Shown here: one piece after another, positions 9,773-60,455 of the stretch
Numbering within the stretch: position 1 is the stretch's first letter
How the letters are laid out: each line of letters begins with the position of its first letter
NCBI RefSeq assembly: GCF_055900595.2
Contig: NZ_CM148325.1
Direction: 5' to 3' (one strand)
DNA: 64,000 bases
Program-made: the position numbers and the translations under genes
Notes under the pieces: model-generated
What the model saw: the letters and a program-made list of their open reading frames with translations, nothing else
Told to the model about the DNA's origin: nothing
The model's database searches: none

Positions 9773-9823
9773 TAACGTAAAAGCAGGTAAACTGCTTTTA
9801 CCAATAAAAAATGAGTTTTGCCA

Positions 9824-31222: not shown

Positions 31223-31252
31223 ATATCGCCTCGTTCAGAGGCGATATTTTTT
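31223..31252 (+). terminator. Rho-independent terminator of the hem operon
   Basis: ATATCGCCTC–GTTCA–GAGGCGATAT hairpin followed by TTTTT, starting 4 nt after the hemY stop. Confidence 0.7.
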
Positions 31253-31858: not shown

Positions 31859-32063
31859 AAAAACGCCTGCTCTTATTACGGAGCAGGCGTTAAAACAGGT
31901 CTGTATGACAACAAGTGGGTGCTTCACTCAACGTTGTGTCCATGGTGTCTGATGAGGCATAAGCGACATCTGTCAGTGGACGATAAGCACCGTAAACGGC
32001 TCTGCGTCATTCCGGAGTTTATGAGGCACTAAGGCGAACATAAGAGATGGAATGAGCATCTAC
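31857..32063 (-). ncRNA. glmZ: Small regulatory RNA GlmZ (activator of glmS translation)
   Basis: Reverse complement of 31857-32063 reads GTAGATGCTCATTCCATCTCTTATGTTCGCC...AACGCCTGCTCCGTAATAAGAGCAGGCGTTTTTTT, matching GlmZ (207 nt) including its 3' terminator hairpin and U-tract. Lies between hemY and aslA as expected. Confidence 0.9.
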
Positions 32064-49491: not shown

Positions 49492-50595
49492 TTATTTGGT
49501 TAAATTGGGGCTGCCACCACGATTTCTACGCAGTCTGCGTTTTACGCGCTTAATAAAGCGAGCAACTTTCCAGGCACGCTTAATGCAATATCCATAGAGG
49601 AAGAATGCTAGCAAAAAGAGCACCAGCATGACCCATTCCGGGACAAAATGAGAGTATTCTGCCAGCACGCCAATTGAGGCGAGCAGTGCTGCGGCAAGGG
49701 TAATCAGCACAAACGCCTGGCGGGAAGTAAACCCGGCACGCATGATCAAATGGTGAATATGCTGACGGTCAGGAGAGAATGGGCTCATGCCTTTACGCAG
49801 GCGACGGTACATAATTGCCACCATATCCATTAGCGGAATGGCGATAATCCATAATGCAGTAACCGGGCTTATTGGGTGCGTTTTTCCCTGAGTCGTTTCG
49901 AGCAGGATCCAGATAACGGTAAAACCAATCAGCGTACTGCCCGCATCACCCATAAAGACTTTGTAGCGGCGACCCAGGATACCAAGGTTGAGCATGATAT
50001 AGGGCAGGATGGCGGCGATCATCGCAAAGCACCAGATAGCGAGGCTGGTTTGCCCGTCGAACCACAAAATCATACCGATTGCTGCAAACGAGACGCAGGA
50101 CAACCCGCCCAGCAAGCCATCAATGCCATCAACCATGTTGAAAGCATTAATTGCCGCCCAGACGGCAAATAGCGTCAGGAAGTAGCCAAACGGTCCGAGC
50201 ACCATCTCCCAGGAGCCAAAGATATAACCCAGGCTACTGAGATAAAGTTTGCCGAACACCATCATAACAATGCCAACAGCGGCCTGTATGGTGGCACGGA
50301 TTTTTACGCTGATATCAAAACGGTCATCCAGCGCACCGATGAACACAAGCACACCGGCACAAGCGAGATAGAGAGATGCATGCGGAATATAATAATCGAC
50401 AATTCCGAACGTGAAGCAAATCCCTGCGTAAACCGAAATACCCCCAACGAGAGGTATCAATCCCTGGTGACGTTTGCGGAAGTTAGGTTTATCCACTAAA
50501 CCGACTTTTTTTGCTACCTTTCGGGCAAAAAACAGAAACAGTGTCGTGAATAAAAAAATACTGATGAGATCAGTACTCACTGTCAGTAAATTCAC
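49492..50595 (-). CDS. wecA: UDP-GlcNAc:undecaprenyl-phosphate GlcNAc-1-phosphate transferase
   Basis: 367-aa polytopic ORF of the MraY/WecA family; first gene of the wec cluster, downstream of rho. Confidence 0.95.
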   Translation of the reverse strand: MNLLTVSTDLISIFLFTTLFLFFARKVAKKVGLVDKPNFRKRHQGLIPLVGGISVYAGICFTFGIVDYYIPHASLYLACAGVLVFIGALDDRFDISVKIRATIQAAVGIVMMVFGKLYLSSLGYIFGSWEMVLGPFGYFLTLFAVWAAINAFNMVDGIDGLLGGLSCVSFAAIGMILWFDGQTSLAIWCFAMIAAILPYIMLNLGILGRRYKVFMGDAGSTLIGFTVIWILLETTQGKTHPISPVTALWIIAIPLMDMVAIMYRRLRKGMSPFSPDRQHIHHLIMRAGFTSRQAFVLITLAAALLASIGVLAEYSHFVPEWVMLVLFLLAFFLYGYCIKRAWKVARFIKRVKRRLRRNRGGSPNLTK

Positions 50596-50785: not shown

Positions 50786-50820
50786 AAAAGCAAAACGCCA
50801 CGTAAACACGTGGCGTTTTT
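50786..50820 (-). terminator. Intrinsic (bidirectional-looking) terminator downstream of rho
   Basis: Perfect palindrome AAAACGCCACG–TAAACA–CGTGGCGTTTTT with A/T runs on both sides, 15 bp after the rho stop codon. Confidence 0.7.
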
Positions 50821-50834
50821 GGCATAAGACAAAT

Positions 50835-52094
50835 TTATGAGCGCTTCATCATTTCGAAGAAATCGTCATTGGTCTTGGTCATCGCCAGTTTATTAATGAG
50901 GAACTCCATGGCATCGATTTCGCCCATCGGGTGAATGATTTTGCGCAGGATCCACATTTTCTGCAGCTCTTCCTGAGTAGTGAGCAGCTCTTCTTTACGG
51001 GTACCGGAACGGTTGTAGTCGATTGCCGGGAAGACGCGTTTTTCAGCGATCTTACGAGAGAGGTGCAGTTCCATGTTGCCTGTACCTTTAAACTCTTCGT
51101 AGATAACTTCGTCCATCTTGGAACCGGTATCGATAAGCGCGGTAGCGATGATGGTCAGGCTGCCGCCCTCTTCCACATTACGCGCCGCACCGAAGAAGCG
51201 TTTCGGGCGATGCAGGGCGTTGGCATCCACACCACCGGTCAGCACTTTACCTGACGCCGGAACAACGGTGTTGTAAGCACGCGCCAAACGAGTGATGGAG
51301 TCGAGCAGAATGATAACGTCTTTCTTGTGCTCAACCAGGCGTTTCGCCTTCTCGATCACCATTTCCGCAACCTGAACGTGGCGAGATGCGGGTTCGTCAA
51401 AGGTGGAAGCAACAACTTCACCTTTTACCAGACGCTGCATCTCGGTGACTTCTTCCGGACGTTCGTCAATCAGCAGAACCATCAGCACACAATCCGGGTG
51501 GTTGTAAGCAATGCTCTGAGCAATGTTCTGCAGCAGCATGGTTTTACCGGCTTTCGGCGGTGCCACAATCAGACCACGCTGACCACGACCGATAGGTGAT
51601 GCCAGATCCAGTACGCGAGCGGTTAAATCTTCAGTAGAACCGTTACCACGTTCCATGCGCAGACGAGAGTTTGCGTGCAGCGGGGTTAAGTTCTCAAAGA
51701 GGATTTTGTTGCGGGCGTTTTCAGGTTTGTCGAAGTTAACTTCGTTAACTTTCAGCAGCGCAAAATAGCGTTCACCTTCTTTCGGCGGGCGAATCTTACC
51801 AGAGATGGTATCACCAGTGCGGAGGTTGAAACGGCGGATTTGGCTAGGAGAAACGTAGATGTCATCAGGACCGGCGAGGTAGGAGCTGTCTGCGGAACGG
51901 AGGAAACCAAATCCATCCTGCAATATCTCCAGTACGCCATCACCAAAGATATCTTCGCCACTCTTTGCGTGCTGCTTCAGGATGGCAAAAATAATGTCCT
52001 GCTTACGCATACGAGCCAGGTTTTCCAGCCCCATATTTTCGCCGAGAGTGATCAGCTCAGAAACCGGCGTATTCTTTAATTCGGTAAGATTCAT
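50835..52094 (-). CDS. rho: Transcription termination factor Rho
   Basis: Track ORF (443 aa) trimmed to the ATG at 52092-52094, giving [44 protein letters not shown]... (419 aa) with a Walker A motif (APPKAGKT). Confidence 0.97.
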
Positions 52095-52178
52095 AGTGGT
52101 GTGAGTTCTTAAACTTGGGGTAAATCTCGAACTTAATGTTGTGAATGGTATGGCAGGATCATCCATGCCTGTTTACGG

Positions 52179-57835: not shown

Positions 57836-58051
57836 AGGTGTATTGCTCAATCTTCGAACGGGGGGAGGATTGTAGCAGAATCGCATTTGAATGTGACCGA
57901 GTGAAAACCGCTAACCGGATGGCTGCGGATGTTTAAATCAGAGAGGGAAGGCCGAAACCGGAGTGCATCATGAATCCATTAGACTTAGAAAATATCGGGT
58001 CGTAACGTTGTGTTATTACTTTTTCAGAGTTTACTAAGGAGAGGTTTACTC

Positions 58052-58501
58052 GTGGCGATTAATTTCAGCCCCAAGGTTGGTGAAATACTGGAATGCAACT
58101 TTGGTAACTATCCTGTTAGCCAGAATGGACAGTTCAGCACGACGTATTACGATGGCCGCATTCCACCTGAGATGATAAAAAATAGGTTGGTTGTCGTGCT
58201 CAACGGAAAAATTAATGGCAACGCATGTATCGTCGTTCCATTATCAACCACTCGCGACCATGACAAGTTAAATCGTGGAATGCATGTTGAAATAGCCAGT
58301 AATGTTATCAATGACCTGCAATTCTTTGATCAGCAGATACGTTGGGCTAAAGCCGACCTGGTACAACAAGTCAGTCGAAACCGATTAAACAGAGCAAGGA
58401 CTTATCGGGGGTATCTTAATCAATGTTTGCCACATGAGTTGGTTGCAGACATACAGAGGGCAGTCATCAAGTCAATCAATGCCATATCGCTCATAAATTG
58501 A
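58052..58501 (+). CDS. yifN: PemK/MazF-like (yifN-type) protein, apparently intact
   Basis: Track ORF 58010..58501. I prefer the GTG at 58052 because AAGGAGAGG lies 7 nt upstream. PemK/MazF-like blocks: PKVGEILECNFG (compare P-x-x-G-E/D-I/L-W), RLVVVLNG and CIVVPLSTT. Similarity judged by eye only. Confidence 0.65.
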   Translation: MAINFSPKVGEILECNFGNYPVSQNGQFSTTYYDGRIPPEMIKNRLVVVLNGKINGNACIVVPLSTTRDHDKLNRGMHVEIASNVINDLQFFDQQIRWAKADLVQQVSRNRLNRARTYRGYLNQCLPHELVADIQRAVIKSINAISLIN

Positions 58502-58578
58502 CAATAAAATCACCATCCCCGATAATGACTCTGTAGCCCATAGAGGCCCTAAGTTTTCTCCCCTTGAGGGACCTGCGA

Positions 58579-58600
58579 AGCCCGGATTTTCCGGGCTTTT
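58579..58600 (+). terminator. Candidate intrinsic terminator downstream of yifN
   Basis: AGCCCGG–ATTTT–CCGGGCT hairpin followed by TTTT. Confidence 0.5.
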
Positions 58601-58628
58601 GCCATATATGTCCCCCCTCCCTGACTGA

Positions 58629-58934
<306 letters not shown>

Positions 58935-58936
58935 CA

Positions 58937-58964
58937 GCAAGGCCTTCTCCGGGAGAAGGCCTTG
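58937..58964. terminator. Long perfect palindrome between the convergent ppiC and ilvC (probable bidirectional terminator)
   Basis: CAAGGCCTTCTCC-C-GGGAGAAGGCCTTG, a 12-13 bp stem directly after the ppiC stop and before the ilvC stop. No strong T-tract. Confidence 0.5.
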
Positions 58965-58979
58965 AACTCTGAATCGCAC

Positions 58980-60455
58980 TTAACCCGCAACTGCAATACG
59001 TTTCATATCCGTCATATAGCCGCGCAGTTTCTTACCTACCTGCTCAATCGCATGGCTGCGAATCGCTTCGTTCACATCACGCAACTGCGCGTTATCTACC
59101 GCACCTTCCGGAATAGCTTTACCCAGGTCGCCCGGTTGCAGCTCTGCCATAAACGGTTTCAGCAACGGCACACAAGCGTAAGAGAACAGATAGTTACCGT
59201 ACTCGGCGGTATCAGAGATAACCACGTTCATTTCGTACAGACGCTTACGGGCGATGGTATTGGCAATCAGCGGCAGTTCGTGCAGTGATTCATAGTAAGC
59301 AGACTCTTCGATGATGCCGGAATCAACCATGGTTTCGAATGCCAGCTCAACGCCTGCTTTTACCATCGCGATCATCAGTACGCCTTTATCGAAGTACTCC
59401 TGCTCGCCGATTTTGCCTTCATACTGCGGCGCGGTTTCGAACGCGGTTTTGCCGGTCTCTTCACGCCAGGTCAGCAGTTTCTTATCGTCGTTAGCCCAGT
59501 CCGCCATCATGCCGGAAGAGAATTCGCCAGAGATGATATCGTCCATATGTTTCTGGAACAGCGGTGCCATGATCTCTTTCAGTTGCTCTGACAGCGCATA
59601 AGCACGCAGTTTCGCCGGGTTAGAGAGCCGGTCCATCATCAGGGTGATGCCGCCCTGCTTCAGGGCTTCGGTGATGGTTTCCCAACCGAACTGAATCAGT
59701 TTTTCTGCATATGCCGGGTCGGTGCCTTCTTCCACCAGCTTGTCGAAGCACAGCAGAGAGCCAGCCTGCAACATACCGCACAGAATGGTTTGCTCGCCCA
59801 TCAGGTCAGATTTCACTTCCGCAACAAAGGACGACTCCAGCACGCCCGCACGGTGACCACCGGTGGCTGCCGCCCATGCTTTAGCGATCGCCATGCCTTC
59901 GCCTTTCGGATCGTTTTCCGGGTGAACGGCAATCAGCGTCGGTACGCCAAACCCACGTTTGTACTCTTCACGCACTTCGGTGCCAGGGCATTTCGGCGCA
60001 ACCATTACTACGGTGATGTCTTTACGGATCTGCTCGCCCACTTCGACGATGTTGAAACCATGCGAGTAACCCAGCGCCGCGCCGTCTTTCATCAGCGGCT
60101 GTACGGAACGCACCACGTCGGAGTGCTGTTTGTCTGGCGTCAGGTTAACGACCAGATCCGCCTGCGGGATCAGCTCTTCATAAGTGCCAACTTTAAAACC
60201 GTTTTCGGTCGCTTTACGCCAGGATGCGCGCTTCTCAGCGATCGCTTCTTTACGCAAGGCATAGGAGATGTCCAGACCAGAATCACGCATGTTCAGGCCC
60301 TGGTTCAGACCCTGTGCGCCACAACCGACGATGACCACTTTTTTACCCTGAAGGTAGCTCGCGCCGTCAGCGAATTCGTCGCGGCCCATAAAGCGACATT
60401 TACCCAGTTGCGCCAGTTGCTGGCGCAGATTCAGTGTATTGAAGTAGTTAGCCAT
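58980..60455 (-). CDS. ilvC: Ketol-acid reductoisomerase (NADP+)
   Basis: 491-aa [65 protein letters not shown]..., matching IlvC. Confidence 0.97.

Follow-up and report, generated by a model that had tools for sequence, protein, structure and literature searches.

Several classes of described element bear comparison with the hairpin that lies between the convergent genes ppiC and ilvC of Escherichia coli. Bidirectional Rho-independent terminators share with it the position, the GC-rich stem-loop and the service of both strands; they differ in that the tails of the E. coli hairpin both score below 2.5 and that Rho-dependent read-through occurs beyond it in K-12. A further class, in which Rho-dependent termination is followed by exonuclease trimming back to a protective stem-loop, was described by Dar & Sorek 2018 (PMC6061677), who also stated that the loss of U residues may turn one type of terminator into another and that mixed cases may be recognisable by weak U-tracts. 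With this class the hairpin has in common a stable structure that lacks a U-rich tail, RNA ends right after the stem, bicyclomycin-sensitive read-through and a C>G bias downstream, but here one hairpin acts on two transcripts of opposite direction and its descent from an intrinsic terminator is visible, and trimming by PNPase or RNase II is putative here. Collision-driven bidirectional terminators (Ju et al. 2019; Wang et al. 10.1101/2022.10.23.513370) need a stem-loop and are described as Rho-independent. The convergent pair, the stem-loop and overlapping 3′ ends (33 nt in K-12) are found at ppiC/ilvC too, whereas Rho regions flank this site. REP and BoxC/TMECO elements, finally, are likewise palindromes of intergenic regions that can stabilise the mRNA upstream of them, and a BoxC/TMECO copy adjoins the hairpin in K-12-type strains; the ppiC/ilvC palindrome, in contrast, occurs once per genome and has no sequence relationship to REP or BoxC.

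The window, by which is meant the whole 64-kb stretch of DNA analysed, is E. coli chromosome, a 501-nt query being 100% identical to several RefSeq genomes annotated with ppiC and ilvC. The ppiC coding sequence (58653..58934, + strand, 93 aa, stop at 58932-58934) is defined by its open reading frame, by the RefSeq annotation of identical DNA and by the K-12 annotation, and that of ilvC (58980..60455, − strand, 491 aa, stop at 58980-58982) by its open reading frame and by RefSeq and K-12 annotation. The gene names and the convergent layout proposed in the first-pass annotation, which was made from the sequence alone, are confirmed by these open reading frames and by the annotation of identical DNA. 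The 45-nt gap between the two stops holds the hairpin, at 3 nt from the ppiC stop and 15 nt from the ilvC stop.

The palindrome occupies 58938..58964 as a perfect 27-bp element, which a repeat finder detected and which is predicted to fold into an RNA hairpin in both the ppiC (+) and the ilvC (−) transcripts. Its arms, 58938-58950 (CAAGGCCTTCTCC) and 58952-58964 (GGAGAAGGCCTTG), are 13 nt each and 100% complementary in the repeat finder; the single base G58951 separates them, and the true 27-mer is CAAGGCCTTCTCCGGGAGAAGGCCTTG. Within 58600-59300, the order of segments is CGTAACTAA CAG CAAGGCCTTCTCC G GGAGAAGGCCTTG AACTCTGAATCGCAC TTA ACCCGC. The first-pass annotation had correctly recognised a perfect palindrome between ppiC and ilvC with fully complementary 13-nt arms, but its string, CAAGGCCTTCTCC-C-GGGAGAAGGCCTTG, carries one C too many and its start, 58937, falls 1 nt before the beginning of the arm at 58938. 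The 1-nt loop that it drew cannot form in RNA; upon folding, each strand adopts a 12-bp stem with a 3-nt loop and 7 G-C pairs, at -19.6 kcal/mol. The folding-energy calculation that it had suggested as a check supports a stable hairpin, with z = -4.2 and -4.8 for the two strands and 0 of 200 shuffles as stable. The GC-rich stem and short loop of an intrinsic terminator are thus both present. The element is also the longest perfect inverted repeat of the whole window. Arms of at least 13 nt with a spacer of at most 8 nt appeared in only one of 100 first-order Markov versions of the window (mean 0.01 per window), and a chance match was rejected as its origin on these grounds. Natural terminator stems reach 12-14 bp. 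Since other loci have core stems of up to 15-17 pairs by the same counting, the description of the palindrome as unusually long does not hold for a hairpin of the terminator type.

The tails beside the stem were scored with a d'Aubenton-Carafa-type function, for which every trimming of the stem was tried, because pairing between A-tract and T-tract otherwise extends stems and hides tails. The function and its cut-off of 2.5 are those used in TransTermHP. In the ppiC direction, the tail AACTCTGAATCGCAC (58965..58979, + strand) is U-poor, with 2 T in 8 after the full stem (AACTCTGA) and 3 T in 8 after the GC core (TTGAACTC); it scores 1.87, raises no flag in a simple terminator scan and lacks the U-rich tract of an intrinsic terminator. 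In the ilvC direction, the tail CTGTTAGTTACGGTA (58923..58937, − strand), which overlaps the ppiC stop and last codons, is moderately U-rich, with 4 T in 8 after the full stem (CTGTTAGT) and 5 T in 8 after the GC core (TTGCTGTT). Its score of 2.32 lies below 2.5, yet it passes the simple scan rule of 5 T in 8 and is terminator-like by that measure. The weak U-tracts reported on both sides in the first-pass annotation are borne out by the 2 T and 4 T in the first 8 nt and by the two scores. For comparison, K-12 gives 2.19 in the ppiC direction and 2.32 in the ilvC direction, and the medians of 32 other Enterobacterales loci are 3.3 and 4.5, respectively. An A-tract mirroring a T-tract is likewise missing from the window (AACAGCAA...TTGAACTC): the E. 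coli A-tract reads AGCAA and the T-tract TTGAA (TTGAG in K-12), whereas Siccibacter has AAAAA...TTTTT and most other genera also have tracts.

A PpiC scan, with one genome per species, provided 80 loci, among them 34 Enterobacterales loci with a convergent ilvC within ~300 nt. A GC-rich hairpin stands a few nt after the ppiC stop in almost all of the 34, with a stem sequence that varies by genus, and in most of them it is preceded by an A-tract and followed by a T-tract, as in Citrobacter werkmanii (AAAAAGCCCGGTG-TTTA-AACACCGGGCTTTTTT). Among the 32 other loci, scores of at least 2.5 are reached in both directions at 20, in the ilvC direction only at 8 and in neither at 4; the tail is stronger than that of the window at 29 of 32 in the ilvC direction and at 21 of 32 in the ppiC direction. 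The window's own stem is found at the orthologous site in three other taxa. In Siccibacter colletis it forms a textbook bidirectional terminator, AAAAAGGCCTTCTC-TGA-GAGAAGGCCTTTTT, while Enterobacter asburiae (ACAAGGCC...GGCCTTTAATGTTTG) and strain RIT691 (ACAAAGCC...GGCTTTTAGTGTTTG) carry intermediate forms, the latter with one clean compensatory G-C to A-U change. Across 7 homologous hairpins, pairing holds in 96% of cells, whereas shifted registers give at most 64%; with 7 sequences the covariation is not significant, as the 2 pairs changed on both sides were matched or exceeded in 41 of 500 shuffles. By these sequence relationships, the E. coli hairpin appears to be the descendant of a canonical two-way terminator, from which most of the A and U tracts have been lost.

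Within E. coli, 5393 of 5426 complete genomes contain a 30-mer around the hairpin, at a single locus; the median count of 2 places per genome would follow from a palindrome being matched once on each strand. The stem core is invariant in the strains read, and changes are confined to the loop (G or A), the apical pair and the basal pair. For example, strain EBJ003 has C to T at the apical pair, which gives a G-U pair in the ppiC-sense RNA, SYNB1934 has C to A at the basal pair, and K-12 MG1655 has the same hairpin with A as the loop base. A larger difference lies beside the stem. By alignment to K-12, the 9-nt segment ACTCTGAAT (58966..58974) is replaced in K-12-type strains by 50 nt, at about 3959450-3959499 in K-12, between the hairpin and the ilvC stop. 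These 50 nt contain CCCTCTCCCTGTGGGAGAGGGTCGGGGTGAGGGC, which matches the BoxC/PIT/TMECO element, known for its presence or absence between strains, and the insert has been listed as a putative G-quadruplex site between ilvC and ppiC. It provides K-12 with a better ppiC tail (GUGUUUUCU; AGUGUUUUCU) and with a second hairpin. No TMECO core was found in the window with up to 2 mismatches allowed. The K-12-type allele is carried by 2944 of 5426 genomes (~54%), and the short allele, that of the window, accounts for most of the rest (~45%). Enterobacter asburiae and strain RIT691 have a K-12-like arrangement, and for this reason the short form of the window may be a secondary loss.

The transcript data are all from K-12 and from one experimental dataset (Adams et al. 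2021, eLife, PMC7815308), and the K-12 allele differs from that of the window by its loop base, A instead of G, and by the presence of the BoxC/TMECO element. The K-12 hairpin is located at 3959502-3959528, and on each strand the Term-seq end lies exactly 3 nt beyond the full stem. In M63 medium, the ppiC end is 3959499(-), with 23,172 reads and the class 'primary, ppiC', and the ilvC end is 3959531(+), with 5,802 reads and the class 'antisense to ppiC' (Supplementary file 1 of PMC7815308). Both ends are 6 nt past the GC core, and the two RNAs overlap by 33 nt. The objection that the first-pass annotation had itself foreseen, namely 3′ ends mapping well away from the hairpin on both strands, thus did not materialise. 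In LB at OD 0.4, the end listed for the ppiC direction is 3959467(-), immediately past the BoxC/TMECO hairpin (PMC7815308), which implies that polymerase or RNA passes the first hairpin in this medium. Since the K-12 ends lie 3 nt past the homologous stem, the 3′ ends of the present strain are expected near 58967 (+, ppiC) and 58935 (−, ilvC).

Beyond the hairpin, Rho regions have been mapped in both directions in K-12 (PMC7815308, Supplementary file 2). At 3959177(-), 325 nt beyond the hairpin, the Rho score is 3.98 (p = 2.4e-12), and the upstream/downstream reads change from 147/39 in untreated cells to 179/189 with bicyclomycin; at 3959826(+), 298 nt beyond the hairpin, the score is 2.80 (p = 4e-5) and the reads change from 75/35 to 81/106. 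The bicyclomycin data suggest that a substantial share of transcription in K-12 runs past the hairpin. The Rho scores are computed over windows of 800 nt in which few reads fall, however, and antisense transcripts initiated at other places could contribute to them. In the window, the RNA that would be made by read-through from ppiC, antisense to ilvC, is C-rich and G-poor over 58965..59144 (+ strand), a rut-like composition: its C/G ratio over the first 80 nt, 2.36, exceeds the 99th percentile of the window, and as far as +180 the ratio does not fall below 1.7. The read-through RNA in the ilvC direction reaches a peak C/G of 1.69. Two features of the Dar & Sorek class are found at this locus, with a stem-loop that lacks a U-rich tail and a 3′ end directly downstream, the ends being those of the near-identical K-12 allele, and with Rho-dependent read-through (K-12 scores of 3.98 and 2.80) into RNA richer in C than in G (2.36 and 1.69 in the window).

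The reading that we consider likely is that of a decayed, leaky bidirectional intrinsic terminator, which still sets stable 3′ ends and beyond which Rho stops read-through. According to this proposal, the palindrome would encode the common 3′-end hairpin of the convergent units ppiC (+) and ilvC (−). Its ancestor would have been a canonical bidirectional intrinsic terminator, composed of A-tract, GC stem and T-tract, both tracts having largely decayed in E. coli. RNA polymerase arriving from either side would transcribe the stem, and some complexes probably terminate there, more of them in the ilvC direction because the tail UUGCUGUUAGUU is still fairly U-rich. The remaining polymerases would run on into the facing gene in antisense orientation, and Rho, as published for K-12, would stop them there within ~300 nt, since the read-through RNA is antisense and untranslated. 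By analogy with the class of Dar & Sorek, 3′-to-5′ exonucleases may trim these longer RNAs back to the stem, so that both mRNAs would end a few nt past a hairpin that protects them from further decay. The position of the K-12 ends, at +3 from the full stem and +6 from the GC core, fits termination and trimming alike; we infer that both contribute at the hairpin, and that the K-12 data carry over to the short allele. This allele is expected to allow at least as much ppiC read-through as that of K-12, because its ppiC tail is poorer and it has no second hairpin. A ribosome that halts at the ppiC stop, 3 nt short of the stem, would sit over the 5′ arm and could reduce termination in the ppiC direction still further.

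Two other readings were weighed. According to one, the hairpin works as an efficient bidirectional Rho-independent terminator of the classical kind, and the downstream Rho signals reflect unrelated antisense transcription; the flag of the minus strand in the simple scan, the canonical terminators at the homologous position in relatives and the K-12 ends on both strands, each 6 nt beyond the GC core, are consistent with it. This reading is nevertheless quite unlikely, given a ppiC-direction tail with 2 to 3 U in 8 and no scan flag, tail scores below those of most relatives on both sides, and a bicyclomycin treatment that raises K-12 downstream coverage to the upstream level in both directions. 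The other, preferred in the first-pass annotation, sees a purely protective hairpin at which no termination takes place, with Rho acting downstream and exonucleases trimming back. It draws on the weak U-tracts, on Rho regions downstream both ways with rut-like composition right after the hairpin, and on the existence of the class described by Dar & Sorek 2018 (PMC6061677), but we hold it unlikely, as 5 of the 8 nt that follow the GC core in the ilvC direction are still U and some intrinsic termination should therefore occur. The wording of that annotation, a stabilising hairpin rather than a classic terminator, finds real support in its first half, from the K-12 Rho regions ~300 nt beyond, the C-rich and G-poor read-through and the fit to that class; the opposition implied by 'rather than' overstates the case, given the canonical Siccibacter homologue, the ilvC tail that passes the scan and mapped ends which, at 6 nt after the GC core, also agree with weak intrinsic termination. 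As a general property of intrinsic terminators, 5 U in the 8 nt following a GC core are expected to cause some termination.

Convergence itself could also matter. In a collision-type terminator, converging polymerases would meet at the stem-loop and be released by head-on and trailing collisions, a process that could act alongside the leaky terminator favoured here. Convergent genes, a stem-loop unlike that of a strong intrinsic terminator and the 33-nt overlap of the K-12 ends agree with it. It is nonetheless very unlikely as the explanation of this site, because the class is described as Rho-independent while Rho-dependent regions flank the hairpin, and because ilvC is inducible and its 3′ end is found in the minimal-medium Term-seq sheet only, which would make collisions rare in rich medium. 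Extremely improbable is a role as a binding site for a DNA-binding protein, or membership in a mobile or repeated element family, despite the perfect dyad symmetry and the IS1 found in one arm in one strain. The element is single-copy per genome, its place between two stop codons is no regulatory position, RNA 3′ ends map to it, and the same position is taken in other genera by hairpins of unrelated sequence, a pattern that fits an element acting as RNA structure, not a site recognised by its sequence. Repeat-family identity was rejected on the single-copy state, and the many dispersed copies and family consensus of repeated extragenic palindromes give way here to one locus per genome. The identity as a protein-binding site, an alternative offered by the first-pass annotation, was rejected in view of stems that differ between genera at the same position, between stops, where RNA ends map. 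Rfam at a permissive threshold gave no match at the hairpin within 58300-59300, and a literature search with the stem sequence returned unrelated primer matches only.

The decayed, leaky terminator favoured above can be extended, in a tentative and rather doubtful form, to a bidirectional terminator in transition from intrinsic to Rho-backed (or collision-assisted) operation, in which ppiC read-through into antisense ilvC would be set per strain by the presence of BoxC/TMECO. The class of element and the 3′-end data at the locus are already known, and the element is an ordinary one; only mildly new are the series of orthologues in which the tracts decay and the variation between strains in the presence of the neighbouring BoxC/TMECO element. 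Beyond annotation, with 3′ ends placed at ~58967 (+) and ~58935 (−), the ppiC/ilvC hairpin carries little weight. It offers a clear example of what Dar & Sorek proposed in general terms, since a canonical two-way terminator would here have lost its A and U tracts while the hairpin persisted. The presence or absence of BoxC/TMECO may cause modest differences between strains in antisense transcription across ilvC.

Additional rearrangements were encountered at the locus. In E. coli F829 (NZ_OY754443.1; locus L089 47-824), IS1A is inserted in the 5′ arm of the hairpin with a 9-bp target duplication, GGCCTTCTC; a complete core hairpin follows on the ilvC side, and only a half-stem stands after ppiC. 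The 501-nt stretch 58600-59100 has at least 99% identity in 13 of 5431 matching E. coli records, and 1249 records reach only 90-95%. This low identity is partly the 41-nt length difference between alleles, and the rest would lie in the ppiC and ilvC ends. In E. albertii and the record 'E. coli SCPM-O-B-8794' (L006, L007, 2280-2416), the ppiC-ilvC gap holds another, canonical terminator, AAAAAACCGGTG...CACCGGTTTTTT, with REP-like palindromes after it. None of the 5426 complete E. coli genomes has this arrangement, which is thus no E. coli polymorphism in that set; because of this absence, the SCPM-O-B-8794 record may belong to another Escherichia species.

Other hairpins of the window were also recorded. 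Between a yifN-like ORF (58010-58501) and ppiC, a canonical terminator hairpin, AAGCCCGG-ATTTT-CCGGGCTTTTG, is located at 58578-58604; its K-12 counterpart is the very abundant 3′ end 3959909, with 39,000-63,000 reads and the class 'orphan', 96 nt upstream of ppiC (Adams et al. 2021, PMC7815308). Further long perfect inverted repeats lie at 50792-50819, 31862-31891, 31223-31247 and 9777-9801. Located between two ORFs of the minus strand (49492-50595 and 50835-52166), the one at 50792-50819 (AAAACGCCACGT-AAAC-ACGTGGCGTTTT) possesses complete A and T tracts and forms a useful contrast to the tract-poor hairpin of ppiC and ilvC.
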